A stretch of DNA of 64,000 bases from Psammoneis japonica (lineage: Eukaryota), in the NCBI GenBank assembly GCA_008632985.1, contig QPGO01000023.1, positions 741,681 to 805,680 of the forward strand, read 5' to 3'. A program made the position numbers and the translations under genes. The notes beneath the pieces are model-generated. The model was not told the DNA's origin and searched no databases. It saw only the letters and a program-made list of their open reading frames with translations. Positions 22,230-52,320 of the stretch are shown here, piece by piece (the stretch's first letter is position 1; every line of letters starts with the position of its first letter).

Positions 22230-22234
22230 GGCAG

Positions 22235-22286
22235 ACTCTCTCTACTCTCTCTCTAGAGAGTGGATGGCAGCCACTGCAGATGGCAG

Positions 22287-22315
<29 letters not shown>
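22235..22315. repeat. (CT)n and (GA)n microsatellites
   Basis: ctctctctactctctctct at ~22235-22254 and about 14 GA units at ~22288-22315. Confidence 0.9.
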
Positions 22316-22317
<2 letters not shown>

Positions 22318-22329
22318 TCCAAAATCGAT

Positions 22330-27333: not shown

Positions 27334-27390
<57 letters not shown>

Positions 27391-29320
27391 NGCATTGCTG
27401 GGGCAAGCCAAGGGTGTCTCACACATGATGTGGGTTTGCATGTTGGAGGCTGGCAAAGGTGAGTTTTGATGCATTCTGTGTGTGCCCCCATGTGCTCTGT
27501 TGCAGCCAAGGAAATGCTCTGTTTAAAAGCACACTTGCATTTGTTGTTCAAAGTGAGCAACTCCACAGTCAAAAAATCCAATCTTCTGGTGTGCACAGTG
27601 AATCCACTGAGCCTGAGCTTCCTTGACTTTGCCATGTTCTGTTTCATTGTCCACACCACAAGCTTCTTTTCTTTTCTCAAATTGCAGTTGTTTCAGCAAC
27701 TAAATTGTGAGAACACTGATCACACCATTTTTGGATGACATGGTTTGTTGCAGGAGAGTGACAAAGTTTTCTTCTTTGTCTTTTGGTTTGGCGCAAATGT
27801 CTCTTTTTCTCATTGAGAAGTGACAAGGATGAAAACATTCCATGCTTTCATTGGCTGACATTTTGAACCTTCAAGCGACACATCCAATGAGCACATTGAT
27901 GGACCACATGTGGTTTCACCCATGTCATTCTGCTGAAGTGACCAGTTTTTAGATTTTGTCAGGCTTGTCATGACAAAGTGGCATGGAGCCAAACTTCTCT
28001 TTTCATGTGCAAGTTGTTCGCGGCATTGGAGATTTGTGTGCACCACACCTGTTGCACTGCTTTTTGTTGATCCAGTGATTCAACAACATTGTTGCAAGTT
28101 TTGTTGTGTTTGCAGGAACAGTGGTTGAGTTGTTTTCTCACAACTTGTTGTTGCCATGGATCCATGGCTTGACACTGGTGTTGGAGAAGCAGCTGACACC
28201 AACACCAACATGTGCGCTGGCACAATGCCGACACCAGAGTTGTTGAAGTGACAGACTGCACATGGAGCCTTTGCAAAGAGAGCTGGAGCTCAAAAGTGTG
28301 GTTGCTGTGGCTCTGGTGCTCAACATCAAACATCCCATGGAAAGAAAGCAGCAGGAACAGCACTCCAAAATGGGGGCAACTTTGTTCAGCCAGAGATGTT
28401 GACAAATGCAAAGCATCAGAAGTTGGCTTTGGCTGCTCCTTCTGCTGCAACCACACTCTCCTTTTTGCAGATTTGGCAAATCCAGGATTTGCTTTCAGCA
28501 TGGCCATGCAAACCCAAACAGAAAGCTGCCAATTTGTGTCATTGATGCACCAGAGTTGGGTTGATGTTTTTAATCCCCAAGCCGCTGAAAGCAGAGTTCC
28601 GACCAACCCAAAGATGGGGCACAGTCAACGTTGAAGCTGACCACAAGTTGATGCCAGCAAAGAATTGGAGCTTGCAGTGCAAGACATTGAGTCTTGCTTC
28701 CTTTCTCACACAACTGTGTGAGGACTTCTTTGACGAAGTTGTTTTGCACACATGGCAAAACCATCAACACAACACAGGCAAGTTTGAGATTGACATTGAA
28801 AGGGTTTGTTGCACTGGTTTGTTCTGCAACAGGTCCAAAATTGGAAGCAAGGCTGCAAGCTGCCTGAGTGAACACAAGATGAAGGCATCTGCTTGTGCTC
28901 CAATTTTTTTGCCATGGAGCCAGATGACGTTCCCAAACATCTTTGCAAAGAAGGCTTTGCTGGCATGGAAACATGATTGTTTTTTGCACTGCCAATCACT
29001 TGTTCAGCAGCTTGTTGCTGCACTGTGATTTCTCCTGTTCTGACATGATGCAAATCATCATTTGGACAACACAATTTTCTGGAGTCTGCAACTTTCGATG
29101 CAAGCTGAGCAGCTTCAAACGACGGCAATTTTCTTCTTTCCTGTCTTTTTTGGTCTTTTTGCACAATTTCTTTTGTTGCTTTCCACTGACTCTCAAAGTC
29201 AAACAATTTGTTTTGGTTGCCACCAAGCAGGCTCCATGAAACTTGAGCATGTCCATGTGGCAGCTGACATTGTCATTTGCAAGAGACATGTTGACAATCA
29301 AATCAAACTTGTTTACAGCA
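22330..29320. mobile_element. TpA- and CpG-depleted block A: decayed repeat/TE-derived DNA of unassigned family
   Basis: TA nearly absent over 7 kb, CG rare, TG/CA in excess; fragmented protein-like frames on + (~22900-26590) and - (~27400-29300); ORFs nearly Tyr-free. Confidence 0.6.
27334..27390. repeat. (TG)n microsatellite flanked by single Ns
   Basis: 57 bp of perfect TG; N at 27333 and 27391. Confidence 0.95.
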
Positions 29321-34899: not shown

Positions 34900-35600
34900 T
34901 ACCGCAGGGGTGCTCTGGTAGTAGGGTTAATACAAATATCATAAAGAGGAAAAGGTCTTATATTATGTCTGTCCCCACGGACCCTATACCGTATGTGGAA
35001 TACCTGATGGATGGAGTGCGAGCTGCTTGAGGGAGGAGAGGACCAATGACGAGTCGACATCGAAGATGTAGGTAGAAAATCCTTGAAAACCAAGCAGTAA
35101 TCCGTGATCGGCAGATCGCCTTGCTTCGGGTAGCTGTCGACCAATCCCGCAGCTTAGTCATGGAAAGCTGGGTGGTTTTCACATAGAATTTGTTTCAATG
35201 CCCTGGGTGGTTTTCACATAGAATTTGTTTCAATGCCTTGTAGCCATTGCTGCAGCATGATGAAACAATGCGACGACACTTGTTGTTCTTAGGGAACATG
35301 TCAAATCGAGACAAAATCTTGTGGATCTCATTGTGGGCTTCCTTGCAATGGACATGTGCATCAGTTGGGGGGGGGGGGGGGGTCCACATTGTTGCCAACT
35401 GAAAATCCCCAATCACTGCCAGGTTTGGGACAAAATGCTGCAACAGATGAACATGGAAACCAGCATCAGAAGCATGGCACAAAAGAAGATTTTGCTTCAC
35501 ACATGGATTCCAGCAGCCAGGGGAGTTGTCATGACAGATGTTTGGTTTCCCAAAAGAGCTTCTTGTGATCCAGCATCAAACTCATGATGAAATGTGTGTC
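34900..35600 (-). mobile_element. Probable copia gag-like relic straddling the edge of the TpA-depleted zone
   Basis: Fragments DMFPKNNK..GYKALKQIL.ENHP and SYPKQGD...DY..VFKDFL resemble recalled diatom retroelement gag-like proteins; broken by stops and a 35-bp duplication. Confidence 0.4.
35168..35237 (+). repeat. Perfect 35-bp tandem duplication
   Basis: ctgggtggttttcacatagaatttgtttcaatgcc x2 (35168-35202 and 35203-35237). Confidence 0.95.
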
Positions 35601-37299
35601 ATTGACAAGAATGAGGTGTGACCAGCACAATTGACATGATGGCACAAGTGACTGCTGTCAAAGGAAGTGAACAAACTTGGAAGGTTCACCTCACAGGAGT
35701 TTACAATCTCACATCATTCGCAGACATCATCACAAAATGTGTCCAAATAAAACAGGTGCTTGGAAACAACAAGAGCAGCAACATTTCCACAATGCCCACT
35801 GGTGGGCACAGCAGGCAGTGTAGCACTTTTCACATGAAGTCGTTCAGTGCTGTGATGAGATTGTCCATGCCAGCCAATGAGCGATTTGCAGTTGTTGACA
35901 ACAGAAGAGGTGTCACACAGGCCTTGTTTGGTTGCATGCAGCACAAGAGAAAACTTGGCTTTCAAAGCACACATGAGTGGCATTGGGCACAATGACCTCT
36001 TTGATGCAGCCAGCTTTGGAGATTTTGTCAACTGCAGTTTGAGGACTCTTGTTGGTCATGCTCACATGAGTCTTGCTGGTGGGGGTCTGCTGGCATTGCC
36101 ACCTTTGGAGCAGCTGGTTTGACAATTGATTCAACCACTTGCTGGGCATCAGAGAAGTTGTCAGCAAAATGTGCAATGCCTTGTTGAACAATGCAATCTT
36201 GGAAAACCTGAGCAAATGATTTCTTGGGCTTGGTGTGACAGCTTTTTGTGCCATCAAAAATTCAGCAAGATCAAAGTTTGAACCCATCCAAACCACACTG
36301 GCTCTTGAAAAACAAAATGCATCTCAGCAAGAGCAGCTGTGGGGCCATTTTCAGGGCTCTTCAGTGCCACAGCATTGCTGTTAAAAAAAGAGTTGGCCAC
36401 ACAAATGCATGCCCTGCGTGCACTGCTCATCAAGAAGAGATTCAGTGTGTGAAGGAGAAAAGAGGTCAAGGGTGCTGGGCTTGATTCCAAAAACTGCAAG
36501 ATCATCTGGCACTTTTCCAGCACAGCTCATGACTCAACCACAGCCAACTGTCATGCACTGGGCTTCTCATTGACAAGCAACTTGACATGCTGACATTTTG
36601 GTTGGTGCTGTTCAACCACAGTGGGAGATTTGCTGTTTGCATCTCATGTGCATTGTTGCACCCACATTTCTCTGATTGTTTTTCCAATTGTGCTGCAACC
36701 ATGGACACACTTGCCCATGCTTGCATTCCACCCAAACATCCATGCACCATGCAGAAAGACTGCTGCAATCTGGGCAATGTGGAGCCACACCAAAGCAGCA
36801 CAATCATCACTCTTTTTACAAACACAGAGGTCTGCATCTCTCTTGAACCTGTGTTGCATGAGTGTTCAAAACAAACAAGCATTCTTCTTGTCCTGTCTGC
36901 TTTGAGCTTCCAGAGTTGTCCAAGACAGCTGGCATTGAATCACAAGTCTGTTTGAACAACAATGGCAAATCAGACATCGGCCACACAACAGTTGGTGGAG
37001 ACACTCCAGAAAACTGGGCATTGATCTGGCATTTTTGCATCAGACCATTGGGGAAAGCAAACCAGTGATGAGGAAGCTCCAGTGTGACATCCAGACATGG
37101 CATCCAATGGCTCTTTTCATGTTGAGGAGTTGACTCAGTTAAAAAGAAAAAAAAGATGGTGTGAGAGAATCTTGACCATCCTTGGGGCAAAATGTCGGGA
37201 GGCAGAATGCCAAAAATCTTGACAATTTTTAACAGGAGATTGCCTCAGACTCTAAAAGACACCAAATGTTGCTTGACAGCATGTTGAGCAAGTGGAGCA

Positions 37300-39090
37300 G
37301 GAGTGGTCCTTTCCACATCCAATTAAAAAGGAAGACACTGGGCCATGCTGTGCACAAGACTGTGCGAAGCAAAGCACTTTTGTGAGCAGATGCTCAAAAA
37401 GATGAGGTGAAGCACTCATGCAAGATTGGTGCATTGAACAGGGCAGACTGCTTGAAATGGGCAGCACTGTCACTTGCCATTCCAAAAACAGAACAAACAA
37501 CAGTGCAACTTGTCAGTGATTTTTGTGAGCTGAACAAGAGAACAAAGTGGGTGCCTCGCCATGCCCCACACACTCAGGACATGCTCTTAAAACTCAAGGG
37601 TTTCAGTGGACAAGCATTGCTTGATCTGAACATGAGCTGCCACTGCCACATGAAGCTTGGTGATGCAGCATTGCAGAAGCAAGCTTTGGACTTTAATTTT
37701 TCTGTGCAGAAAATGTGAGATGCAATGCCTGCCAATGGGCCCATGCATGCTCAAGTGGCAAGAAGACACTGGAGCCAAGGTCAATGCCTCAAAGTTGTTG
37801 TTCTGTCAAGCTCACTTGGAGCATCTCAGATGCAAGGTTGCCAGCAATGGCGTTCAACCCTTGAGGAAAAAGGTCAAGGCTGTGCAGTGCATTGCCAACC
37901 CAAAGACCAAGAAAGAACTTTGGCCACCATTTGTTGGCATGGTGAGCTGCTGCAAAGATGCACCACAGCACAGATTGAATGCCTTGGCACCCCTTGCAAG
38001 ACTTGCAAGCAAGACCTCTAAATGGGAATGGACTTCTGTCAAGGAGAGTGAAACACTCCAAAATGCCAAGCAAGCAGCATCAAAACAAGGTGCACTCCTT
38101 GCACATCCAGGCTGCAATGTGAGACATTTGAAGTTCACATCGACACATCCAAGTGTCAACTCAGAGCAGTGACATCTTAAGATGACAAACCTGGCCACCA
38201 CACTTTGCAAAAGAAAGCTCAATGGTGCTCAACCAAATTGTGCAACAATGGAACAAGAGCTGCTTGCAACCATCAAGACTTTGAAAGAACTCAGGTCTGC
38301 TCTCCTTGGTCATTGCACCTTTGTGTGCACTGATCATAAAAAATCTCATGCAAAGAATGTTGCCTTGAATCAAGATGTGGTGTCAAAGGTCATCAAAGTT
38401 TGGTTGTAGACTGTCTCAGTGGTCTCAACTTTGAGCCATTTTTGGACTCCAAGTGCAACCCAACAGTTGTAAAAGCCATTGAAGTGCATCCTCTGCATGT
38501 GAGGCCTTCATGAACAAAGTGAAGAAAATTGTGATGATTCCTGTTGGTTTCAAAAAAATTCTTTAACACAAACAGCAAATTGATCAGCACCTGTTGTTCA
38601 GCACTCATGCTTCATGCAATTCATGCTTCATGCAGTTTGCTCCACCGGGTCATTCCATTGAGGAGAAATGTCCAACAAACAGCTGACTTGTGGTCAGGAC
38701 AAAATTTGTGTCCCAAAGTCATTGTAGAAGCAGCTGACTGAGTGGTGCCAGCATGTGCAGTTGGTTGCATCATCCAGGAGAAACATGCACAGAAATCACT
38801 GATTTGCCCAGCATTTCTGCTTGCATGGCAGGAGAGTTGTGGTGTGCTTCATGTGCTCCAAATGGGGCTCATGTCAGAGGATGAAAAGGTGCAATCTCAA
38901 ATGCAGAAAGCTCCCAGAAAAAGTGGCAGAAATTGTCCCTTGGGAGACCCTTTGCATGGATGTGATCAGAGAACATGTGATCAAGTGCAAGAGTGAAACA
39001 CTGTTGCACTTGTGCAGTGACCATGATTGATCCAACAACCAGAAGGCTCAAAATTGTCCAAGCACTAACTGCCAAACATGTTGACATCAC
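37300..39090 (+). mobile_element. Degenerate Ty3/Gypsy pol relic (RT-RNase H-integrase order)
   Basis: WAA...IPK, VSDFCELNKR, QDMLLKLKGF, LDLNM, CLPMG, KVNASK, PKTKKEL..FVGMVSCC, RKLNGAQ.NCAT.EQELLA, VCTDHK, PWETLC.DVI, TMIDP; many stops, frameshifts and Y->C/H changes. Confidence 0.85.
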
Positions 39091-41199
39091 AGCAAATAAG
39101 AAAGTGCCTGCTGGCAACCACCAGCGCACCACAGGGCTGCTGCACAGGCCCTGTCAGAGTCATGCAAGTCAATGACAATGGCACACTTTGTGCACAAGAT
39201 GGTGCATTGATGGACATGCACAATCCAAGGCAGATTGCACCCTGTCATCAGTGGTCCATGCTGGTGCTTTGTGCTGACATTTGTCAAGGGGGAGCATGCA
39301 GCACACAACACTGGCTGGCTGCTGACAGATGTCAGCCATGTCCCATGATGATGTTGAACTTCCAGAGGCAAAGTCAGAGCCCCAGAAGTGCATGCTGCAA
39401 ATGCCCAAGTGAGCTTGCACTCATTTCAGTGAGCGGAAGCATTGGCACAATTGATGGCATCAGTTGTGAGTGATCCATGCACAGAGGTTGTGCAGTGACT
39501 GGCCATGAACATTGTGCCTTGGATGCATGAAAACTGTGTGCAAGGCATGCACTGGCTGTGCAGCACTCAAGTCATAAGCTGAACTTGGAGTGATGCATTT
39601 CATTTGTGGATGAACACACTCACAAAGCTGTGTGAAGTGAGCACAACTTTTGTGCAACCAAACATTTCTTGGCCAAATGAGCTGACTCAGAAATGTTCTC
39701 CCCCAACTGCAGCAGACTGCAATCTGTTGATCTGCCCAAACTCAAACACCAACTTGGTGCACAAGGCAATCTGGCATTTTCTCATGGCAGGATTTCTTGC
39801 CCTGGGAGAAAAAATGTCCTTTTTCTGACATGCAACATTTCCTGCCAGCACTCCAATTGAACAACATCTGCAAGTCAGCACGGTGCTCTCCTGCTCCTTG
39901 TTGTTGGATTGGAGCACTGGCCAGCAGCAACCATGAGCTTTTTGATTTGTGCCCCATTCTGTGGATGAGAAAATAAACTCAGATGTGTTCAAGTTCTAAG
40001 AAACAACTCTGCTCAGGCAAGTCACTTCATTTGTTGCAAATTGGCTCCACAAGTGCATTTTTGTTTGAGCATCTTTCACCACATGTTCAAAAGCCATCTG
40101 TCCACACAGCTGAGTGTGTTGTCAAGAGCATTTGAGTTGCACAAAAGAAGCAGTTGTCTGAGTCACTTTTTGCCAGTTTGATTCAAGTGGTTGCCTGTGC
40201 AACCCATTGTTTGATCTCTTTCTGTTTCTGAGATTTTTCTCTGGTGAGCTGTCGGCATTTTCTTTCTCTTGCTCAATGTCATCTCCCTTCTCATCTTTGC
40301 TGTTTTTTTGTCATCACTGACACCACCACTCTCCAAGGACTCTTCTTGCATCTTGTCTGTGTGCCCCTTGTCAGCGGCATCATCATTGTTGCTGTCGCCA
40401 TCACTGTCTTCTGCTGATGAGGTCATTCTCTGGTGACTTCCAACCTTCCATCAGGTTTTTTGCTGCCCTCTGCTCATTTTGACCCTTTGCTCCAACCTCA
40501 TCAGCCTTCTTGTCTTGCAGGCATTTGTCAGCAACTCACCACCCTTGCTGCTTTCCTCTTGCTTGAGCAAGAGGACTGTGGTGCCACATGAGTGCTCACT
40601 TTTCATTTGGAAAACAGCACAACAATGACAAGGCACTCATGCCAGCATTGGGTTTTTGGCTCGCCCAACTCACCTGATGACAAAGCTGTGGAAGATGAGA
40701 ATGACATCTTGCCAGTTGATGCTTGTCATTCTTGCACCATGTTTCAGTTTTTTGTGCTGGTGGCAGCCGCGGTGCACTGGTTGCTCTAAACTTGACTCAT
40801 CCAACTGTTTTGGCCAACCATGCTAACCCAACATCCAAGTCAATGAGTTCCAACATTTGCAATTTTTTGTGAAGCTTTCCCCCCATTTTGAATCTGAACA
40901 AATGTCCTGAGCTGCTTGACCTTTTCAAACATTGCTGTCAAGCAAAGCTGAGCATGTTGAATTTCACCAAATGTGCTCATTTTTTAACATTTCATTGAAC
41001 AAAGCATTGTGAGAGAACACCATCCAATTCAGCCCCAAAAGAAGCTCAAAGCTTTGTCACCCATTAAAGACTGGGCATCTGTCATGTGTGGCATTCTTGC
41101 TCAGGACTCCACCATGCAACAACTCACCAATCCTTGCTCATGATGTCCCTTGCTTGCACAATTTGTCAATCTTTGCTTGGGGCATGCCAGATGCAGAGC

Positions 41200-42210
41200 T
41201 GTTGCATTTCCCAAAATGGCACGTGGCACCAAGAAGGTTGGCAGGGTTGATCTCTTGTCATGCTGCCACTTTTCACCTCCATGGTGTCTGGGGGAGGAGA
41301 CTTGAAATTTGATGCTGGCTGTGGTGCTGGAGGTCCAAATGGGGTGCACCAGCCAAACATGAGCTGCAGACCAAAGGCTTTGAGGGTGTTTGGTGGGTGC
41401 CAGGCATCATTTTAAAACCATGGCAGACAGTCACAGGGTCAGTCTCTTGCCCATGCAGCCCATTCTCACCTGCACGTCTGGGGTGCAAGACTTGAAACTT
41501 GATGTTGGCTCTGGCACTGGAGGTTGGGGCAGGGTCGTGCATCAGCCAAACAAGTGCAGGCTGAAGGGTCCAAGGGTCTTTGGTGGGTGCCAGGCATCAT
41601 TTTGACAACCATGATGGGACAGCCAAAGGGCGAATCTTTTGTGCCCATGCAGCCACATGCCACCTGCATGTCTTTGGGAGGAGACTTGAAATTTCAAATG
41701 GCTGGGGTGCTGGAGGTCAAAATGGGGCATGCCAGCCAAACAGAAGCTGCAGGCCAAAGGGTCCAAGGGTGTTTGATGGATGCCAGCATGCATCCCTTTA
41801 AGAACCATGTTGGACAGTCACAGGGTCAATCTCTTGCCCATGCAGAGCCACTTCTTGTTGCCTGCAGACATGTTTGGCAAAGGATGCTTGAAGTGTTTGA
41901 TGCTGCCAGTGGTGCTGGAGGCCAAAATGGGTTGCACCAGCCAGACTGCAGGTGAAAGGCTCCAAGGGGGAACCACAACAGACAGTTGCATGGCAAATCT
42001 CTTGTCCATCACACACACAGCCCATTCTCACCTGCCTGGGTGGGAAGGAGACTTAAAATTCAGTGCTGGTGGAGCTGTTGGAGGTCAAAAGGAGGAACAT
42101 GACCTGCCAGCCAAACAACTGCAGGTCAAAGGCTCTGATGGTCTTTGAAAGGTGCCAGGCATCTTTGAAAACTGCCATGGGCTGTTGCAGGGTCAATCTC
42201 TTGCCCATGA
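41200..42210 (+). repeat. Degenerate tandem array, about 5 units of ~165-200 bp
   Basis: Recurring gacttgaaa..tgatg(c/t)tgg, ccagccaaaca, ggtgccaggcatc and cagggtcaatctcttgcccatg; anchors at ~41299, 41489, 41683, 41885, 42050. Confidence 0.8.
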
Positions 42211-42304
42211 GCTGGCTGGGAATCTGGCACATTGGCCTGGGCAGTTGCACCACACTTGCCCATGAGCTGGCTGGGAATCTGGCTCATTGGCCTGGGCAGT
42301 TGCA
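42200..42304 (+). repeat. 55-bp tandem duplication
   Basis: cttgcccatgagctggctgggaatctggc(a/t)cattggcctgggcagttgca at 42200 and 42255. Confidence 0.9.
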
Positions 42305-43111
42305 TCAGCACCAACATGAAAAGAGCTGTCATCTGGAGAACCCAACTCAGCCACTTCATCAGGAACAGCAACACCTTGACCAGAAAGACCAGGAGCTGCA
42401 TGACCAGATCAAATCAGTTGTTTGTTGTGGTGCATGGCCTGGGAAGAGGTGTGTTGGAGGATCCATCAAAGCCTCCTCTCCAAGAACATCTTTTCTCCAT
42501 CATTGGGGAACAAGTGTGGGTTGACAAACAATGGGAGCTCAAACCCACAACTGATGACACAACACCAGTGATGAGCTGCAAACCAAAGCATGAAATCTGT
42601 GCTTCAAGTGCTGCTGCACTTCCCGCAACTCCAGCAACAAGCTGGATGCTGCGCCAAAGCAACCAGCAGCAGCGCTGCTTGTGCCTCCCCAGCAGCAAAG
42701 TGTTGAGCCTTTGGCATGCTTGACTTGAACACAGGCTTTGCCATGGCCAGAGCAAGGTGCTCACAACCAAATTCAGCAAATGTGCCTTGTTCTTCAGCAA
42801 GCAATCATCAACTCTCAAGTGGATCACACCTTCTCCTTGGCTTCCATGCTGCAGTGCTGCACCATGTTCCCAGTTTCTGAGTCATGACCATGAATGTTGT
42901 TGTCATGCAAGCCCAACAGATCTCGCCACTGAGGCCAAAAACAAAAGTGCCAGCCACAGCAGCTGCCCAGCCCAAATGCCATTTCTCAAGTTCTGGCTCT
43001 GGGAAGACACAACCCTCTCAATGATGTCACTGTCCAATGCTGTCCCAGGAGACTGCAAATGCTTGCACACTGCAGCACACCTCATGAGGATGTCTGGATG
43101 TTGATGCAAGT

Positions 43112-43387
43112 TGACAGGATTTGAACAGGATTTAGGTGCGCGCGAAGTATCGCGCGCTGTTTAGTTTACCGTGCACAGTTTTGTGTGCTTTAGTTCCGCG
43201 CGTTCACGCGCGATGTAGTTTGCTTTCGAGCCACAAGGCTCACAAGAATAATAACAGTAGCCCGATTATACCGACTTACACGTCTTTCGGCTCCTGTAAC
43301 GGTCTCTGAGCGGAGACTCATCTGCTATTTAGACAGCAGTAAGGAGTTATTGTTTGAATTCTTGCCATTTGCCTTTATTTTCTGTCA
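43112..43387 (+). repeat. 5' LTR
   Basis: TGACAG...CTGTCA inverted termini; aligns without gaps to 49968-50243; 18 TA dinucleotides. Confidence 0.97.
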
Positions 43388-43402
43388 GATTAACAGTCTT
43401 GC
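43388..43402 (+). promoter_or_regulatory. Putative primer-binding site complementary to the anticodon arm of tRNA-Asn(GUU)
   Basis: GATTAACAGTCTTGC directly after the LTR; its reverse complement GCAAGA-CTGTTAA-TC has an Asn anticodon loop with paired GA/TC stem bases. Confidence 0.65.
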
Positions 43403-44350
43403 TCATTGTCAACCCATTGAGCAACCGCCATCGTCGTCGTTGATTTACCAACGACGCTATTTCAATTCTACGTGGACCCCGTATATATCCTACATACATC
43501 GGCAAGTCTACGCGCATTCAATACCAGGGCATCGGCAGGAAGTTAACGTCACCGTCAAGTCTCCTTACCGCTGGATATCTGGATTGATTATACTACCTTT
43601 GATCGCTGAAGACATACATTCAACGGTCATATCCAAGTCTATCCTTGATCCTCATCCCTTGATATACCTATTCATCGGTTAACGGTCAAGAACCCTACAT
43701 ATTCAAGGATCTTCGTCGCTGAAGACATATATATATATACATATCTTCACGGCCAAGAACCTGTACCCACTCTTCGGACTGCGGTTTTGCTGCCACTCTA
43801 CAAGCACACCGAGTCCATTGCACCTGATCTACCCCGGACTGCTGGTGCTCTACAGTTCTACTAGGTCCACGAGGACGACTGTGAGAGCAAGCAGCCATGA
43901 TTGCAGCCTGCGTTGGGGCGAGGGTGCTTTCCCGCGTTTGTTCGTTCGTCCACAGCGCCCAACGCCTGCGTCAACTGGCCAGCCTGATCGGGAAATCCAA
44001 CCGACATAAAATAAGAACGGTTCGGGGGTCTTGTCCACCTCTGGTCAGCTTACCTGCAGGGGTTTACAACCCGCTGCTCCGCTCGCAAGCAACCCAAAGC
44101 GCCACCAGCTGCGGGTTCGGACGTGCCGGCACAACTCTGCGGACCGGACAGGAAGTTTAGCACTTGACAACGAACGGGATGACAAAGCCCGGCGACTTCT
44201 GATTTTAAGACAGTTCAAGATTTCAAGTCAAGTCCATTTCAAGTCAAGTCTGTTCTCACCCAAGTTTCGAGTCCACCTTCTCACCCAAGTTTCGAGCCCA
44301 CCTTTTCTTCCCAACCAGAATTGATTGTCCTGACACCACTTTTGTCTACC

Positions 44351-47300
44351 ATGGTTCTCACTCGTCAGCAACAAACCGATGGTTTCGAGCACGTGGTTGG
44401 AACCGTGCTTGCCCAAGGTGCTGGGAGTCCTCTCCGTTTGGCTTTGGCCCAAGACGGCACGGACTCGCATCAGGAACTGTTCACGTTCATGCCGTCCCAA
44501 ATCGACTCGCTTGAGTGCGACAACGGCACTAATGTAATCCCTTTGCCCCGTGGTTATAAGAACATGTTAGCAGCACCAGTCAGTCTGTACATTGTCAAAG
44601 CACACAAAGGTCTTGATGTTGCCAACGACTCCTCTTTGTTCACGCATGACGAGTTCCTCGCCTGCCGCCTCAGCCCCGACTGCATGTCTTCTGTGTCCAT
44701 CGGCAGCTCACCCCTTGCACCTCCACATGTCACCAACCCGACCAAGGCACGCGACCCGGTGCAGGACTTCAAGCGAGGCATCAAGCGTGATCCCACCGCT
44801 TTCACGGCCCTCAAATCCGACAAGCAGTGGCACACTTGGCACACCTCACTTGTGGCACAAGCCCGTGCCCAAGACGTCGAGTGCATTCTAGACTCGTCGT
44901 ACAAACCGACCAGCCCCGAAGACAAACTGCTCTTTGCTGAACAGCAAAAGCACATGTTCGCCGTCTTCGAACGCATCCTTCTCACCGACAAGGGCAAGGC
45001 TCTCATTCGCGAAAATGTGGGGTCTTCTGACGCACAGACCGTCTGCCGCTCCTTGTCTGAGTGCGCGCTTGCCTCCACCCGCGCATCTGTCGAGTCCTCC
45101 ACCCTGCTCACGCACCTCACCACCGCGCGTCTCGGTGATGGCACTTGGAAAGGTCCGACCCACGGGTTCATCCTTCATTGGCAAGATCAGTTGCGCAAGT
45201 GCGAGGCACTCATCCCGGCCAGTGACCACTTCTCTGAAGGACAGAAGCGCGTCATGCTCGAGAATGCCGTGCACCCTGTCGAGGAACTCCGTGCTGTCAA
45301 GAACCAAGCTGATCAGCATCGTACGCAGAGTGGCAAGAGCCTCACATGCGATCAATGCTGTGGCTTGCTCCTCTCCGCGGCAGCTCAGTACGACAGCACG
45401 TTTCAACCCAAGACGACACCTCGAGCTCCCCGACGTGCCATGTGCGCACACGACGTCTACTCCGAGGAACCGTCCGACGATGTGTTCTACGACATTGACA
45501 GCGACGTTGACGTCCTCCAAGCCAATGCTGCCTGCACCCGCAGTCCCAGCCTCACCGGTGTCCAATGGAGACGTCTCCCTCCCGACCACCAACGGCTCTG
45601 GGATTCGTTGCCCGATTCCTCCAAGGCGATCATCCTTGAGCATTCTCGTCCACCTCCCCGCAACCCGCGAGCCAGCAACTGCCATGAGTCTGTTACGGCC
45701 AACCTTCACGACCAACGCCTTGGGAGTGACGGTGATGTCAACTTGTCCAACACGACTCCTGCTGACTCTGGTGACTCCGCTCCACATGTGGACGCCACTT
45801 CGGATGATCCCATCCTGGCGCACCTCACCAAGCGCAAGCCACTGCCACCCGGTGATCTGCAACGTCTGTTGTCTCCTAACCAAGCCCCCAATGCCAGTCG
45901 ACCGGGGCCATCCGCCGCTTCCTCTACCCCGCCAGCTTCTGCAGATGACATGGAACTTAACGGCCGCACTTGCCGCCGCGTCAACAACCACAATGTCATT
46001 TGCTCTGCCTCTGCTCATCGCTCCACACGCACTGGCGCTCTAGTCGATCGTGGGGCCAACGGCGGCATTGCTGGCGACGACGTTCGCGTCATTGCACGCA
46101 CCTCTCGCCAAGTCGACGTTCAGGGCATTGACGATCATCAATTGGTGGACATCCCCATTGTCACCGCTGGTGCCGTTGTTGAGACCCAGCGTGGTCCCGT
46201 CATCGCCATCCTCCATCAGTGCGCACACACGGGCAAGGGCAAGACCATCCATTCCTGCGGCCAGCTCGAATGGTACAACCAAGATGTCAACGATCGCTCT
46301 GTCAAGGTGCCCAACGGCTTGCAACGTATTGCCACTCCTGATGGCTGTGTCATCCCCATTGACATCAAGGCTGGCCTGCCTTGTGTTGCCATGCGACCTT
46401 ACAATGACGCCGAATGGGACACCCTGCCCCATGTCATCCTCACCGGTGATGACACATGGGACCCTTCCGTCCTCGATCACTCTGTCACTGACGACGACCA
46501 GTGGTACGACGCGATCTCTGACCCACAGGACGATCCCACTGCCAACCCATTTGACGAATGCGGCAACTACCGTCATCGTGTCGTTGTCAACGAGACCATC
46601 ATGTCCGCTTCCTTGTCTGCCGATCACGCGTCCGCCCTCGATGATCACCTCATTCCGAACGACGACGTGTTCTACGAGTGTCATCTGCATGCGATTGGCC
46701 CCCAGGGCGATGACGTTCCACCTCCGGAGCGCACTGTACAGCCCAAGGACCCCCCCTTCGAGTCCCTCCGGCCTTGCTTTGGCTTCCTACCCACCGATGC
46801 GGTCCGTCGTACTTTTGACTGCACCACGCAGTGCGCCCGCATGCCCGCCGGTACACACCTTCGCAAGGCCTGCAAATCACCCAACCCCGCCCTTAATGTG
46901 CACCGCCGCAACGAGCCCATCGCCACTGACACCGTTTATGCCGACACCCCGGCCGTCGACTCTGGTTGCACCAGCGCCCAACTGTTTGTTGGCACCGAGT
47001 CTACCGTCACTGACGTCTACGGCACTGAGACGGACAAAGAGTTTGTCAACACACTCGAGGATCAGATCCGTGAACGTGGTGCCCCATCCAAACTCATTAG
47101 CGACCGTGCTCAAGTTGAGATCAGCAACAAAGTGCTCGGGATCCTGCGCGCTCTCTTCATCTCTAGCTGGCAAAGTGAGCCTCACCAGCAACACCAAAAC
47201 TTTGCCGAACGTCGACACCCGACTGTGAAGCGCATGGCGAACACTGTCATGGATCGTTTTGGTTCGCCCGCCCACACATGGCTGCTGGCGCTCATGTACG

Positions 47301-50020
47301 TGTGCTTCACACTCAACCATGCAGCGTCCCCACGTCTCCACTGGCGCACGCCCCTCGAGACTCTCACTGGCTCCACCCCGGACATCAGCCCATTGCTTCG
47401 CTTTCACTGGTGGGAACCCGTGTGCTTCCACCTCGATGACTCCGATTGGCCGTCCGAATCCCGTGAGTTGCGTGGACGCTTCGTTGGCATTGCTGAGCAC
47501 GTCGGCCACCAGATGACCTTCAAGATTCTATCTGACGAGACTCAGAAGATCCTCTACCGGTCCAACGTCCGCTCCGCTGCCCCCGATCCTGCCGTTCGAA
47601 ACCTGCGTCTTGATCCTCCTGATGGGGAGCCACCTGAACCCATCATCAAATCTCGCCATGACGACAACCCCGTCGACTCTCCTGATGGGGAGATCAGGAC
47701 ACCCAAGATGCCAGTTTTCGATCCGCAAGACATCATTGGACGTACCTTCCTCATGCAGCCACAAGAGGACGGACAACGCCACAGAGCTCGCATCGTCAAG
47801 GCCGTCGAAGACCACGAATGGAAAGTGAACGGCAATCCCGAGCTCACTAAGTTCGTCTGCTCTGTCAACAATGACGAATACGAGGAAGTCCTTGCCTGCA
47901 ATGACATCATGAATCACATTGAGCAAGAAGACGAAGACACCACTGTTTGGAAATTTCGACGCATCGTGTCGCACGAAGGACCTCTGAAGCCTCACGACCC
48001 AACCTGGAAAGGCTCCAGCTACAACATCATGCTTGAATGGGAAAGTGGGGAGATCACGTCCGAGCCTCTTGCCATCATCGCCAAGGACGACCCCGTCACC
48101 TGTGCCATCTATGCACGAGAGAACGGACTCCTCGACACGGATGGCTGGAAGCGGTTCCGCACCATCGCGAGGCGCCAAAAGAAGCTATTTTGCATGGCCA
48201 ACCAAGCCAAGCTTCGCTCCTTCCGCACTGCACCTCGCTACAAGCATGGATGCGAAGTTCCCCGGAACTACAAACACGCCATGTCACTAGACGAACGCAA
48301 CGGCAACCGCAAGTGGGGAGACGCAACTAATCTCGAGATGGACCAACTCGACGAATACGAAGTCTTCCATGACTGCGGGCCCTTCAAGTCTTCCACTCCT
48401 CCTGCGGGACACAAGAAGATCCGAGTGCACCTAGTGTACGACGTGAAACACGACGGTCGCCACAAGGCACGACTCGTAGCCGACGGGCACCTCACAGACG
48501 TACCTGTCGACAGTGTCTACTCCGGAGCAGTCTCCCTCCGTGGCCTTCGGCTGATGATTTTCCTGGCCGAACTCAACGAGTTGGAGACATGGGCCACCGA
48601 CATTGGCAATGCCTGCCTTGAAGCCACCACCAAGGAGAAGCTTTACATTGTAGCTGGACCCGAGTTCGGCAAACTCGAAGGGCACATCCTTGTCATCCAC
48701 AAGGCACTGCATGGACTGCGCAGCTCCGGTCTCCGCTGGCACGAGCGCTTCGCCGACTGCCTGCGAGCTGAAGGCTTCTTCCCCTGCCGCGCCGAACCCG
48801 ACATTTGGATGCGCAGGAACGGCGACCACTGTGAATGCATTGCCGTTTATGTGGATGACCTCGCCATTGCCATGAAGGACCCTCAATCTTTCGTCGACAC
48901 TCTCACGGAAAAGCACAAGTTCAAGCTCAAGGGCACGGGACCCATTGAATTCCATCTGGGTTGCGACTTTTCCCGGGAACCCGACGGAACCTTGTGCCTG
49001 TCTCCGCGCAAGTACATCGAGCGCATGGTCGACAGCTGTGCCCGACTGTTTGGGGAGAAACCCACCACCAACGCCCTGTCACCTCTAGAGAAGGGTGACC
49101 ACCCCGAACTGGACACTTCTGAACTGCTGGGACCCGATGGCATTCACAAGTTCCAGTCTCTTGTTGGTTCACTCCAATGGGCAGTGTCCCTTGGTCGAAT
49201 TGACATTGCCACGGCCGTCATGTCACTCTCTAGCTTCCGAGCTGCGCCCCGTCAAGGCCACTTGGATCGTGCCAAACGCGTCTGTGGGTGCCTCTCCAAG
49301 ATGCGACACGGTGCTCTCCGCGTTCGCACGGAAGAGCCCGACTGTTCGGATCTCCCTGCTCTGGCCTATGAATGGATGCATTCCGTGTATGGTGAAGCAG
49401 AAGAGATGATCCCGAAGGACGCTCCACCGCCCCTTGGCAAGTTCGTCACTGCCACCCACTACGTCGATGCAAACTTGCACCATTGCATGCTCACCGGACG
49501 CTCTGTCATGGGAATGCTCCACTTCCTCAACAAATTCCCGGCTGATTGGTTCTCTAAGAAACAAGCCACCGTGGAGACTGCGACCTGCGGGTCTGAATTT
49601 GTTGCCGCAAGGACTTGTGTTGAGCAGATTATCGACCTGCGCATCACCCTGCGCCACCTTGGCGTCCCGATCCGTAACGTTAGTTACATGTTCGGTGACA
49701 ACAAGTCGGTTGTAGACAGTGCCACCATCCCGCACTCCAAGTTACACAAGCGACACACCGCACTGTCGTTCCACCGTGTGCGTGAGGCAATTGCCTCTGG
49801 TTGCCTTGAGCTCCACTTCATCGAAGGCTCCCGCAACCCTGCTGACATTCTCAGCCAGCATTGGGGTCACTCCCAAATCTGGGACCTTCTCCGCCCCCTC
49901 ATGTTCTGGAACTTCATTCCATCCGAAGTCGAATCTGTTTCTGTGGCTCCTCAAGCAAACTGGGGAGTGACAGGATTTGAACAGGATTTAGGTGCGCGCC
50001 AAGCATCGCGCGCTGTTTAG
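44351..50020 (+). CDS. Copia Gag-Pol polyprotein; ORF intact but many conserved Tyr changed to Cys/His
   Basis: Protease LVDRGAN; integrase D(ATD)..D(ISD)..E(FAE); RT YDVKHDGRHKARLVADGH and YVDD; RNase H YVDA, GSEF, FGDNKS, NPADI. Confidence 0.93.
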   Translation: MVLTRQQQTDGFEHVVGTVLAQGAGSPLRLALAQDGTDSHQELFTFMPSQIDSLECDNGTNVIPLPRGYKNMLAAPVSLYIVKAHKGLDVANDSSLFTHDEFLACRLSPDCMSSVSIGSSPLAPPHVTNPTKARDPVQDFKRGIKRDPTAFTALKSDKQWHTWHTSLVAQARAQDVECILDSSYKPTSPEDKLLFAEQQKHMFAVFERILLTDKGKALIRENVGSSDAQTVCRSLSECALASTRASVESSTLLTHLTTARLGDGTWKGPTHGFILHWQDQLRKCEALIPASDHFSEGQKRVMLENAVHPVEELRAVKNQADQHRTQSGKSLTCDQCCGLLLSAAAQYDSTFQPKTTPRAPRRAMCAHDVYSEEPSDDVFYDIDSDVDVLQANAACTRSPSLTGVQWRRLPPDHQRLWDSLPDSSKAIILEHSRPPPRNPRASNCHESVTANLHDQRLGSDGDVNLSNTTPADSGDSAPHVDATSDDPILAHLTKRKPLPPGDLQRLLSPNQAPNASRPGPSAASSTPPASADDMELNGRTCRRVNNHNVICSASAHRSTRTGALVDRGANGGIAGDDVRVIARTSRQVDVQGIDDHQLVDIPIVTAGAVVETQRGPVIAILHQCAHTGKGKTIHSCGQLEWYNQDVNDRSVKVPNGLQRIATPDGCVIPIDIKAGLPCVAMRPYNDAEWDTLPHVILTGDDTWDPSVLDHSVTDDDQWYDAISDPQDDPTANPFDECGNYRHRVVVNETIMSASLSADHASALDDHLIPNDDVFYECHLHAIGPQGDDVPPPERTVQPKDPPFESLRPCFGFLPTDAVRRTFDCTTQCARMPAGTHLRKACKSPNPALNVHRRNEPIATDTVYADTPAVDSGCTSAQLFVGTESTVTDVYGTETDKEFVNTLEDQIRERGAPSKLISDRAQVEISNKVLGILRALFISSWQSEPHQQHQNFAERRHPTVKRMANTVMDRFGSPAHTWLLALMYVCFTLNHAASPRLHWRTPLETLTGSTPDISPLLRFHWWEPVCFHLDDSDWPSESRELRGRFVGIAEHVGHQMTFKILSDETQKILYRSNVRSAAPDPAVRNLRLDPPDGEPPEPIIKSRHDDNPVDSPDGEIRTPKMPVFDPQDIIGRTFLMQPQEDGQRHRARIVKAVEDHEWKVNGNPELTKFVCSVNNDEYEEVLACNDIMNHIEQEDEDTTVWKFRRIVSHEGPLKPHDPTWKGSSYNIMLEWESGEITSEPLAIIAKDDPVTCAIYARENGLLDTDGWKRFRTIARRQKKLFCMANQAKLRSFRTAPRYKHGCEVPRNYKHAMSLDERNGNRKWGDATNLEMDQLDEYEVFHDCGPFKSSTPPAGHKKIRVHLVYDVKHDGRHKARLVADGHLTDVPVDSVYSGAVSLRGLRLMIFLAELNELETWATDIGNACLEATTKEKLYIVAGPEFGKLEGHILVIHKALHGLRSSGLRWHERFADCLRAEGFFPCRAEPDIWMRRNGDHCECIAVYVDDLAIAMKDPQSFVDTLTEKHKFKLKGTGPIEFHLGCDFSREPDGTLCLSPRKYIERMVDSCARLFGEKPTTNALSPLEKGDHPELDTSELLGPDGIHKFQSLVGSLQWAVSLGRIDIATAVMSLSSFRAAPRQGHLDRAKRVCGCLSKMRHGALRVRTEEPDCSDLPALAYEWMHSVYGEAEEMIPKDAPPPLGKFVTATHYVDANLHHCMLTGRSVMGMLHFLNKFPADWFSKKQATVETATCGSEFVAARTCVEQIIDLRITLRHLGVPIRNVSYMFGDNKSVVDSATIPHSKLHKRHTALSFHRVREAIASGCLELHFIEGSRNPADILSQHWGHSQIWDLLRPLMFWNFIPSEVESVSVAPQANWGVTGFEQDLGARQASRAV
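49962..49967 (+). promoter_or_regulatory. Short polypurine tract
   Basis: GGGGAG immediately 5' of the 3' LTR. Confidence 0.7.
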
Positions 50021-50243
50021 TTTACCGTGCACAGTTTTGTGTGCTTTAGTTCCGCGCGTTCACGCGCGATGTAGTTTGCTTTCGAGCCACAAGGCTCACA
50101 AGAATAATGACAGTAGCCCGACCACACCGACTCACACGTCTTTCGGCTCCTGTGACGGTCTCTGAGCGGAGACTCATCTGCTGTTTAGACAGCAGTGAGG
50201 AGTCATTGTTTGAATTCTTGCCATTTGCCTTTGTTTTCTGTCA
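49968..50243 (+). repeat. 3' LTR
   Basis: 276 bp; 12 substitutions relative to the 5' LTR; only 8 TA remain. Confidence 0.97.
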
Positions 50244-52320
50244 CAAGTGGTGCTGCACACCAGTCACCGCAGATGATCGGGCAGAGATTTGCTGCCAAAA
50301 GACAAGCAAAGCCCAGCTGATGGGCAAGTTTTTCAACAGTTGTTGGCTCAGCAGAGGATCATTGGGTGGAGTGTTGGTTGCAACCAGCAAAAGAGAAAAG
50401 CCCAACTGATGGGTGAGCCAATCTGGGATTGTGCAGTTGGCCAAGATTGCACTGGTGCTGGCCCCAGGGTGGCATGCATGGCAAGACAAATTGAGCAACA
50501 TTTCAAACAAATGTCTCACATGGCTTCTTGAATGGACAACAGTTGGACAAGTTCATCCTGCAATGCACTTGTGCTGCTGTCAGACTTGTCATCTTTTTCC
50601 AGCACTGGTGACTCATTCCTTTCATCATGGCCACTGGACTTGTTCCTGCCATTGTGACCACTGGGCCACCCATTCCTTCAATCACGGCCATTTGTGAGCA
50701 ACAAACATTGAGTCAGCACCAGTCATGAACAATGCCACAAGGACAAAAATTGTGCAAATTGCTCACCTCACCATTGCTCTGCTGCTGGACAACAAAAACA
50801 AAAAAGAAGCATTGTTGTGTTCAACATGCTGTCAAGCTCCACTTTTTGCATGTTTGCTGCCTCCATTTCAAGCCACAAGAATTTGCTGACCATGCCTGGG
50901 ATTTTTTCAGACTTGCTTTCAGGTTTGCCACAGAGGAGCTGTTTTTGCCCCCATCCCTGATGTGCAACATGGAGGTGGCTGCATCCAGGCTGTGTTGAGC
51001 AGTGCCAGGATTGGACATGTTGACACCTGAGCTGGCTGGAACAAGGCAAGCAAACTCATGGGGAGAGTGAAAGAGTTGCCGTGGCAGCCAACTGCTGCCT
51101 TTCACCTGCAGAGGATGGCTTTGCCCAGAAAGTCAGCAAGGTCAAGAAGGGCTGCTCAAAACCTTCTGGGTCTGCACCACTTTTCATGCCAGCAGCATTG
51201 TGCGCCACGCCGTCAGCTTGTTGCAAAGCTCCTGCTTGACCCTCTGAGCCTTGCAACATCTGGTGCATGGGAAGCAATGGCTCTGTCATTGAGGTGAAAG
51301 ACCTTGAGAATTGGGACATTTTGGAAATGATTGGTCAGACTGCACTTGCCAAAGTCATTGTGCAGAAGTGCGCAGTCATTGGGGTGCCTGGGTTGCTTTC
51401 TTTGTCAAGTGCAACATGCGAAGCTTTTTGGCGAAGGTGCTGGGAGGCTCTCTGGAACAGAGGGTTGCTGAGAATCTTGATGATTTGAGAATCTTTTGCT
51501 GGCCTCCAGTTCTCAGAAGTGCTGAAGGAGGGCTTGTTAACGCGCGCACTTTGTCCTTCCAGAAAACTGGTGCCACATTTTTCTTGCAAAATTGCCCTCA
51601 CTTCCCGGGTTTCCCTCACAAGGTTGAGGTGACCCCCCTTGCCCTGGCCATTTTGTGGGATCCCCAAATGAGCAAAACCAAACTGTGTTGTTGTTGTGAA
51701 GAAGCTGCTTGCAATTGCAGCAAAGATCTCTGAAGCCAAGTGCTTTTGTGGGCACAATGCTCCCATCCACAAGCATCTTCTCTTCTGCTGTTGGCAGCCC
51801 TTCAACATCACAACCATGGGCAGCCAAGAAAAGCTTTTGACTGAAGAAATGAGGGGTTGGCGCAAGCCCCCCACTTCCTTGTCATGTGGTGTGCCATCAA
51901 AACACAGCGAAGCGACAAAGAACATTGCCAACAATGACACAAAATGAAAAACAGAAACCTGCAAAAACTGACAAACAGCAGTGGCAGCTCACCAACAAGA
52001 TGACTCAACAACAAGAAAAGAGCAACAACAACACAGCCTGTCAACAGCAATTGCAAAACGAAAACAAGACACAAGCAAACACGGAAAAGAGAAGCATCAT
52101 CATCAACAACAAAGCAATGGCAAAGACAGTGCAAATGTGCATGCAAAAAAGATGAAGCATTGCAAACGCTCCGCAATGTCAACAACCACGACACACAGGA
52201 AGAATCAACAGCCTGATGGCCTTGCAATGGCTTAAGGTCCTTCTTTCCATTGAAAAGCCATCTGATCAAAGGCAGGCATTGTTCTTTCCCATGTGAAGTG
52301 ACATGCCTTTGATCAGACAG
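50244..52320. other. TpA- and CpG-depleted block C (continuation of the DNA interrupted by the copia)
   Basis: TA nearly absent; Tyr-free spurious ORFs; joined to 43111 through the TSD. Confidence 0.75.

Follow-up and report, generated by a model that had tools for sequence, protein, structure and literature searches.

The 64,000-nucleotide stretch of contig QPGO01000023.1 from the diatom Psammoneis japonica that was analysed here (the window, to which all positions refer) carries a long terminal repeat (LTR) retrotransposon, the two LTRs of which differ mainly by the loss of TpA dinucleotides from one of them. A repeat search of the window gave a single direct pair, 276 nt in length and 96% identical (43112-43387 and 49968-50243), and no further LTR or copia match was found elsewhere within the 64 kb. 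The LTRs have TG..CA ends, and the same pentamer, CAAGT, adjoins the element on either side, which assigns the two LTRs to a single insertion. Between them, a gag-pol frame extends from stop to stop over 44183-50020 and codes for 1945 amino acids without an internal stop; the translated protein is referred to as P0001. In 60 of 99 aligned relatives the protein begins at the position of Met57 (base 44351), so that the region 43388-44350 was assigned as a long leader. RVT_2 is the only Pfam family identified in P0001 at E <= 0.001, and no Pfam model for an integrase matched P0001 at this threshold. Among 7478 candidates, 1368 relatives of P0001 were obtained at E <= 0.001; among the matches listed (120), the relatives are 60-72% identical and about 1,100-2,100 amino acids long. 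A comparison of P0001 with viral contigs gave no match. For the polypurine-tract candidate, a similar tract was found to precede the LTR start on a contig from another copy. With its LTRs, target-site duplication, RVT_2 domain and single frame, the element represents a single insertion of an LTR retrotransposon of the Ty1/copia type. The features are collected in Table 1.

Table 1. Features of the copia insertion and of the TpA-poor blocks in which it lies (o/e, observed/expected ratio).
Feature	Position	Strand	Remarks
Left target-site duplication CAAGT	43107..43111		identical 5 bases flank both LTRs
5' LTR	43112..43387	+	276 bp, TG..CA ends; retains 18/18 TpA; unmutated state
Leader (5' untranslated region)	43388..44350	+	TpA-rich to ~43,870, TpA-poor beyond
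gag-pol frame	44351..50020	+	open but hypermutated; 1945 aa (P0001) when counted from 44183
Copia-type reverse transcriptase RVT_2	48398..49036	+	residues 1406-1618; Pfam PF07727, E = 3.6e-26
Polypurine-tract candidate	49957..49967	+	purine-rich, adjoining 3' LTR; inferred from sequence
3' LTR	49968..50243	+	10/18 TpA converted (5 TG, 5 CA), with an adjacent T>C and a G>C
Right target-site duplication CAAGT	50244..50248		same bases as left side
Old block B1	22000..29300		TpA o/e 0.01-0.05, CA/TG o/e 1.66-2.01; CpG depletion only from ~23,000
Old block B2	35200..43106		TpA o/e 0.02-0.18, CpG o/e 0.04-0.30, CA/TG o/e 1.78-2.08
Old block B3	50249..52300		B2 continued beyond the insertion; 1 TA and 22 CG in 1.96 kb

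The two LTRs were compared base by base, and 12 substitutions and no indels were identified. At ten of these sites a TpA is present in one LTR only, and in all ten cases this is the 5' LTR (two-sided P = 0.002): in the 3' LTR, TA is replaced by TG at LTR positions 142, 187, 216, 230 and 266 and by CA at positions 37, 156, 158, 166 and 237. Both strands are therefore affected, with a ratio of 5 TG : 5 CA. This leaves two differences: position 33 has a G/C transversion, and position 155, beside the mutated position 156, a T>C transition. In 11 of the 12 differences the 5' LTR has A or T and the 3' LTR has G or C, and all 11 are transitions. TpA covers 36 of the 276 LTR positions (13%), yet holds 10 of the 12 differences (binomial P = 7.3e-8), and its loss is restricted to one LTR, with 10 of 18 sites lost from the 3' LTR compared to 0 of 18 from the 5' LTR (Fisher P = 3.4e-4). 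The dinucleotide counts for the 5' and the 3' LTR, respectively, are 18 and 8 for TA, 20 and 19 for CG, 18 and 23 for TG, and 16 and 22 for CA. The sole CpG lost between the LTRs results from the transversion, and transitions were found at none of the 20 CpGs, which differs from the loss of 10 of 18 TpAs (Fisher P = 9e-5). The original prediction, which was made from the letters of the sequence only, had counted 12 substitutions without indels, ten TpA losses confined to the 3' LTR with five changes to TG and five to CA, a decrease of TA from 18 to 8 and no CpG transition, and all of these numbers were reproduced. For contrast, a 121-nt repeat in ordinary host DNA (17490/17833) shows 11 mixed differences, of which six are transversions and one is TA>CA.

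Within the LTR, the six TpAs in a TAG context (LTR positions 22, 51, 80, 105, 147 and 219) were all retained, compared to a loss of 10 of the 12 others (Fisher P = 0.0015), and the base following the edited A is A in six cases, T in three and C in one, but never G. At 43264-43271 and 50120-50127, respectively, a TATA-like ATTATA in the 5' LTR stands opposite ACCACA in the 3' LTR; this site contains three T>C changes in a span of 4 nt, and one of these is not at a TpA. If ATTATA were the TATA element of the LTR promoter, the TA state would be the functional and older one.

The LTR pair alone gives no polarity, and therefore outgroup proteins were used for the coding part. A first alignment contained P0001 and 48 relatives from other sources (more than 1700 amino acids long, taken from the first 60 listed, 60-72% identity). 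Columns were regarded as conserved when the same residue was present in at least 80% of the 48 relatives, which was the case for 706 columns, 36 of them Tyr. P0001 deviates at 69 of the 706 columns, with 15 changes from Tyr to Cys, six from Tyr to His, two from Tyr to Phe and the rest at residues other than Tyr. In total, 21 of the 36 conserved Tyr residues are Cys (TGY codons) or His (CAY codons) in P0001, both codon types being a single transition, at A or T, away from TAY, and 21 of the 23 changes at conserved Tyr go to one of these two residues. In 24 relatives tabulated as controls, only 0-2 changes from Tyr to Cys or His were found in each protein, while the other conserved-column changes of P0001 (46-47) were inside the range of these controls. 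The ratio of Cys to His is 15:6 (binomial P = 0.08). The same picture emerged when 100 sequences with a length of 1500 amino acids or more were aligned in a second comparison: P0001 has Cys or His at 19 of 36 conserved Tyr positions, and such changes are absent from 71 of the 99 remaining sequences; 22 of these 99 carry a single one, three carry two and two carry three. The overall composition of P0001 is shifted likewise, with 1.54% Tyr compared to 3.85 +/- 0.33 in 120 relatives, and 6.89% Cys and His compared to 4.47 +/- 0.43. Since Cys and His occupy sites where the outgroup relatives keep Tyr, TpA was destroyed in the lineage of the element.

The change of conserved Tyr to Cys or His was thus limited to at most three sites in 98 of the 99 sequences besides P0001. 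The exception, P0114, is a relative from an environmental assembly with 62% identity, in which 11 of 35 conserved Tyr residues are Cys (seven) or His (four). At this identity P0114 represents a different family and probably a different host, and it hints that the process may not be confined to one species.

The TpA depletion extends beyond the element, and no other evidence supports a real process as strongly as this state of the surrounding DNA. It was followed in 1-kb windows by the observed/expected (o/e) ratio, with the mean of the CA and TG values taken as CA/TG o/e. Ordinary host windows have a TpA o/e of 0.33-0.94 and a CpG o/e of about 0.7-1.2. By contrast, 17 of the 64 windows, in runs of seven, eight and two (22001-28001, 35001-42001 and 50001-51001), have a TpA o/e of 0.01-0.18, a CA/TG o/e of 1.66-2.08 and a CpG o/e that is mostly 0.04-0.34. 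Left of the element, 30 TA and 28 CG are left in B2 over 7.5 kb. The copia element has inserted within the block formed by B2 and B3, and its target duplication is intact. The copia interior is intermediate, with a TpA o/e of 0.20-0.35 and a normal CpG o/e of 0.80-1.03. Where B1 begins on the left, TpA disappears at about 22.0 kb and CpG stays normal as far as 23.0 kb, so that the interval 22.0-23.0 kb contains 2 TA but 40 CG. Because the copia interior and the left edge of B1 keep their CpG, the loss of TpA is both faster and wider than the loss of CpG. The latter probably represents a second, slower layer, in which 5-methylcytosine (5mC) would be deaminated in methylated transposon DNA. In the counts of TG and CA, no consistent strand bias was seen.

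Apart from one 190-bp tandem array, the blocks consist of complex, non-repetitive sequence. The array (41285-41845) contains 2.9 units with 72% matches within a TpA-free block, and its units differ by 3-6 TG/CA doubles per pair. In the blocks, 48 open reading frames (ORFs) of at least 110 amino acids (110-358) lie on both strands in overlapping frames; they are this numerous because TAA and TAG have been erased and only TGA stops are left. In a Pfam scan of 45 of the 48 ORFs no family was identified at E <= 0.001 (best E = 0.0032); the three ORFs left out comprise one that is part of a thioredoxin-like ORF and two that span N bases, and single N bases are located at 27333 and 27391 inside B1. 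A tblastn search with six proteins of the copia family gave no match outside the element, and the three blocks showed no similarity to one another or to the copia family. For the largest ORF of B1 (358 amino acids), no relatives were found among 1.84 billion representatives. It had been predicted that the signature marks mobile or silenced DNA, and it was found in the copia element, which is mobile DNA, and in the TpA-free blocks around it, which have no recognisable origin.

The thioredoxin-like ORF (21339-22241, minus strand; Thioredoxin_4, E = 1.3e-8) is located at the left edge of B1. It has 0.7% Tyr, 7.0% Cys and His, 13 TA per kb and a normal CpG content, compared to 1.8-4.8% Tyr, 2.8-5.3% Cys and His and 22-42 TA per kb in eight host ORFs. 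The TpA process may have leaked into a neighbouring gene here, or the ORF may be part of the block; a search for homologues in which conserved Tyr could be scored gave none at E <= 1e-5.

Other copies of the element were identified among the contigs of one sequencing run, X1, which were aligned to the element at a likeness of at least 80%. A total of 14,677 contigs matched, showing that the family is highly repeated. The summed word depth, which is not equal to copy number, is about 55,000-140,000 in the interior and about 210,000-270,000 in the LTR bins, compared to about 64 for a contig of the single-copy flank. Relative to the copy in the window, the variable places comprise 110 A>G, 114 T>C, 76 C>T and 61 G>A differences and 46 transversions of all kinds. 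Of the 413 variable places, 40 were examined individually. Ten of them are adjacent double differences of CA versus TG, five with CA in this copy and TG elsewhere and five the reverse; such doubles imply a TA ancestor, from which each side is reached by a single step. Six further places have TA in this copy and TG or CA in others, and several show differences of CpG versus CpA or TpG.

These copies also bear on the opposite polarity, in which a C>T process at CpA and TpG, resembling repeat-induced point mutation (RIP), would have created the TpAs of the 5' LTR and leader from ancestral TG and CA. The LTR pair, which lacks a polarity of its own, would agree with this, as would the TpA o/e of about 1 in the 0.8 kb at the 5' end, which is above that of host DNA (about 0.6), and the finding that TG or CA is the within-genome majority at some sites. 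However, Tyr is the residue of 48-99 relatives from other organisms at sites where P0001 has Cys or His, the CA-versus-TG doubles need a TA ancestor, and the blocks have lost TpA rather than gained it. Furthermore, RIP would create stops, yet the frame of 1945 amino acids is open, and two opposing processes would be needed in one element. For the ORF, TpA gain by a RIP-like process is excluded; for the LTR it is unparsimonious, and as an explanation of the whole pattern it is barely credible. The original prediction had argued for the destruction of TpA by A:T>G:C changes on both strands, and this polarity is upheld by the Tyr to Cys or His changes relative to the outgroups, by the CA/TG doubles and by the TpA-free blocks. 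The comparison with a family consensus that had been suggested for deciding the matter turned out to be unsafe. The majority in this genome is itself mutated, and a within-genome consensus therefore polarises changes wrongly: the codons of Tyr403 and Tyr796 are TAC in this copy and TGC in 93% and 90% of the other-copy depth, respectively. For the ORF, it was the outgroup proteins that gave TA as the ancestral state.

A real mutation process at the level of the DNA, by which TpA is converted to TpG or CpA, is likely to be responsible for the pattern. For the copy in the window, the 3' LTR would have been mutated in place after insertion. Several points weigh against this reading. The LTR evidence is derived from one pair in one 64-kb window; the twelve LTR sites were read from the assembly, and of the 40 variable places of contigs that were examined among 413 none is located within the LTR. 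The four sequencing runs that contain the stretch are from one sample, which may be the source of the assembly itself. The sparing of TAG seen in the LTR recurred neither in the interior (P = 0.09) nor in the blocks, and could be a flanking-base preference or chance. The blocks would be old mobile DNA, but have no recognisable domain of a transposable element or virus. At several sites, the derived TG or CA state is common to 90-97% of the other-copy depth, and mutated lineages therefore seem to have kept multiplying. Part of the interior load may thus have been inherited rather than acquired in this copy, and the multiplication of mutated lineages sits uneasily with a defence that fully inactivates its target. 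Finally, about 0.75-0.8 kb at the 5' end of the element are spared, between a saturated block and a mutated interior, which is not predicted by a simple model in which a whole silenced domain is edited.

The spared region was delimited as follows. The 5' LTR has a TpA o/e of about 0.7-1.0, and every 100 bp of the leader contain 4-9 TA as far as about 43,870. At 43852 and 43862, TA is present in this copy, and TG or CA in 44-49% of the other-copy depth. The first site at which this copy is demonstrably mutated is 43960-43961, with CA here and TG in 61% of the other-copy depth, and CA and TG states of its own are found from 43960 onward. The GC content climbs from 0.45 to 0.60 where TA drops, at about 43.9 kb, so this drop may in part reflect native composition. 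Either targeting would halt inside the element, or the 5' end or the 3' LTR would have been replaced through gene conversion by another of the numerous copies.

Ectopic gene conversion, by which a copy with few mutations would have refreshed the 5' 0.8 kb or a more heavily mutated one would have overwritten the 3' LTR, would account for the difference between the LTRs while leaving the TpA process itself real. The great abundance of the family, with its 14,677 contigs, would favour such an event, and the unmutated tract is a compact 0.8-kb piece at the end of the element; the two differences outside TpA also separate the LTRs. Against this, all 10 TpA differences point one way, with only two other differences in 240 non-TpA positions, so that outside TpA sites a donor would have to match almost completely, and no donor copy was seen. 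As the target-site duplication is intact, an unequal crossover did not take place. Gene conversion is therefore regarded as a rather unlikely explanation, although one to be taken seriously. As regards the claim in the original prediction that the process had been caught in the act, the signature itself stood, but its application to this particular copy became uncertain in view of the high copy number of the family, the states shared by 90-97% of the depth and the possibility of gene conversion.

The pattern might also be produced during sequencing or polishing, if modified TpA (and 5mC) in silenced DNA were miscalled as TG or CA. All runs are from one sample for which no platform is on record, of the words sampled from the stretch, a fraction of 0.69 is present in the best run, and miscalls would likewise turn Tyr codons into Cys and His codons. 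However, a 3470-nt contig of X1 with a word depth of 64 matches the TpA-free flank at 42900-43140, including 29 nt of the LTR, with 0 differences, and the length of the X1 contigs, which reach 315 kb, suggests accurate reads. Moreover, TA, TG and CA were found at the same site on distinct contigs from different copies. Miscalls of modified bases are not known to erase TpA and CpG almost completely from both strands along 7-8 kb. The same change of Tyr to Cys or His is present in P0114, which is from an independent environmental assembly, and for the chlorarachniophyte alga Bigelowiella natans such changes were proven to be real by Illumina mutation-accumulation data (bioRxiv 10.64898/2026.01.13.699255). 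An artefact is therefore very unlikely.

An LTR outgroup was sought in metagenomes with a 22-nt TpA-free piece of the LTR as query. The four loci obtained (L001-L004) were rejected as LTR relatives, being chance matches of only 22-23 nt on contigs with 63-69% GC.

In the proposed mechanism, a process acting on DNA would turn A:T into G:C at the palindromic TpA, giving TpG or CpA depending on the strand. Its targets would be mobile or silenced DNA, affected in sharply bounded blocks, with the neighbouring genes mostly spared, and it would be far faster than CpG decay, with kilobases almost free of TpA as its saturated state. CpG would be lost from the same blocks later, probably by ordinary deamination of 5mC. 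As TAA and TAG are removed and stops never created, ruined elements retain long open frames. The restriction to TpA, the polarity, the action on either strand and the arrangement in blocks are shown by the data, as is the diatom host; a role in defence, the chemistry and the mutation of the 3' LTR in place are inferred. The responsible enzyme would have duplex DNA as its substrate or would take the two strands one after the other. The chemistry of first choice would be the deamination of adenine to inosine by an enzyme similar to ADAT/TadA, the tRNA adenosine deaminases. In the tRNA target of these enzymes, A34 is known to follow U33 in all cases.

Two other chemistries were considered. In the first, an oxygenase of the TET/JBP type would form 5-hydroxymethyluracil (5hmU), or a derivative of it, at TpA in silenced DNA, and mispairing with G would result in T>C. 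A change of T>C on one strand is A>G on the other, and by sequence the two are indistinguishable. In a report on the dinoflagellate C. cohnii, 5hmU was described to replace T preferentially in TA and TC and, in dinoflagellates, to take part in transposon silencing (PMC11572971). For the element described here, however, no excess of T>C was seen at TpC, and just a single T>C among the 12 LTR changes lies outside TpA; mutagenicity of 5hmU at such a rate and the presence of 5hmU in diatoms are both assumptions. A thymine modification is thus considered unlikely. In the second, error-prone repair synthesis by a polymerase similar to Pol eta would be recruited to silenced chromatin. Pol eta favours A>G at WA motifs, which would suit the observed change, but also yields A>T and A>C and a strand bias. 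An ApA signal is missing here, 11 of the 12 LTR changes are one kind of transition, the outcomes are 5:5 in the LTR and 15:6 in the ORF, and the counts of TG and CA have no consistent bias. For these reasons a Pol eta-like synthesis, which had been among the candidates named in the original prediction, fits poorly and is extremely unlikely.

It had further been stated in that prediction that no described pathway with this signature was known. This did not hold, since the same spectrum was measured, and a defence function proposed, in B. natans by Mettrop et al. (bioRxiv 10.64898/2026.01.13.699255). In this preprint, 231 of 302 new single-nucleotide mutations in mutation-accumulation lines were located in two integrated viral regions, and all but one of the mutations in these regions were A>G or T>C. 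Each of these GC-biased mutations was on TpA and yielded TpG or CpA. Only some lines were affected; the mutations arose at about 6e-7 per site and generation, and the de novo rate measured in lineages was about 1000-fold above background. The B. natans genome was reported to contain 124 clusters of windows poor in TpA and rich in CpA and TpG, and the TpA-poor coding sequences were enriched in reverse-transcriptase and DDE domains. As the enzyme, an adenine deaminase similar to ADAT2 was proposed, and it is noted in the Discussion that ADAR and ADAT favour an edited A that is preceded by U. In the text of the preprint, the terms CpG, diatom, LTR and retrotransposon do not occur; its supplementary tables may list LTR elements and may contain data on the flanking context.

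The process in the diatom would be of the same kind as the TpA hypermutation of integrated viral DNA in B. natans. In both cases (for B. natans, bioRxiv 10.64898/2026.01.13.699255), the changes consist almost exclusively of A>G and T>C, are restricted to TpA, and lead to TpG or CpA depending on the strand; they are regional and, as far as the copia element is concerned, aimed at DNA other than that of the host, and form clusters of 1-kb windows poor in TpA and rich in CpA and TpG. By our own o/e measure, from which the formula of the preprint may differ, 17 of 64 windows fall into this class here. The hosts differ, being a stramenopile here and a rhizarian there, as do the targets: a high-copy LTR retrotransposon and old blocks that are unrecognisable here, compared to single-copy inserts of nucleocytoplasmic large DNA viruses (NCLDV) and virophages there. 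The depletion is far deeper in the diatom, with a TpA o/e of 0.01-0.09 over most of 7-8 kb compared to a Rho of 0.45 for the NCLDV region, and CpG is co-depleted in the old blocks, a point on which the text of the preprint is silent. In contrast, the diatom provides a historical footprint alone, whereas the mutation rate was measured in B. natans. In full-text searches of the literature, no report of the TpA to TpG or CpA signature was found in diatoms or for LTR pairs.

Other known systems share parts of the pattern. Fungal RIP, as in Neurospora and others, is likewise a DNA-level process with dinucleotide-specific transitions on two strands that ruins repeats in blocks, and it may leak into neighbouring DNA, for which the thioredoxin-like ORF would be a possible case here. 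Its direction is opposite, since RIP converts C to T at CpA, creates TpA and stops and lowers GC, while here TpA is destroyed, GC is raised and the frame has remained free of stops. Deamination of 5mC also leads to an excess of TpG and CpA in silenced DNA, and very likely explains the loss of CpG from the old blocks. However, it is unable to remove TpA, and its signature was not found in the LTR pair or in the copia interior. It had been predicted that neither of these two processes is responsible, and the absence of transitions at the 20 CpGs, the reversed polarity and the open frame are in agreement with this. The editing of retroelements by APOBEC or ADAR is similar in that deaminases produce clusters of one type of transition. 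There, RNA or single-stranded cDNA is edited on one strand, and the edits are expected in both LTRs alike, since by the scheme of reverse transcription they would be copied into both; here both strands are affected and the LTRs differ. Finally, ADAT2/ADAT3 would fit as adenine deaminases with a tRNA context that corresponds to TpA. Amphioxus BjADAT2 was reported to deaminate A in DNA; in the accessible part of that work, no link to transposons was apparent (PMC10354150).

The diatom LTR retrotransposon is a further case of a process known from one 2026 preprint on an unrelated alga. The diatom host, the evidence from an LTR pair, the high-copy retrotransposon as a target, the depth of depletion and the order of loss, TpA before CpG, appear to be new. 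If the process is real, mutation-based genome defence would extend from a chlorarachniophyte to the diatoms, a major and partly tractable group of the phytoplankton; its targets would widen from viral inserts to LTR retrotransposons, and its enzyme could be approached by comparing the gene content of lineages with and without the footprint. A practical consequence concerns the dating of insertions. The LTRs diverge by 4.3% overall and by 2/240 (0.8%) outside TpA, and LTR dating would therefore overestimate the age of this insertion about five-fold. In addition, the element looks intact by its open frame of 1945 amino acids, yet it is ruined and has lost 21 of the 36 conserved Tyr residues, and TpA-free blocks are a likely source of spurious gene models.

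On a broader scale, TpA editing of double-stranded DNA might be a conserved genome immunity of the SAR supergroup (stramenopiles, alveolates and rhizarians), present at least in rhizarians and stramenopiles, with a dedicated TpA-reading enzyme that provides a fast first layer before CpG decay. This generalization is put forward tentatively and may well not hold. If it did, 'ghost' open frames would remain in the genomes and partly edited elements would still multiply, and both transposon annotation and LTR-based dating would be distorted across diatom genomes.

The element and the blocks lie among host genes with long exons, including those for DUF72, signal peptide peptidase, BRF1/TFIIB, HSF, RIO1, Nipped-B and others. 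A dinoflagellate as the host was considered and rejected: the spliced-leader motif had one match with two mismatches in the stretch, which was equalled in 26 of 100 shuffles. The best matches of the RIO1 ORF have 57-71% identity, and every named one among them is from a diatom.

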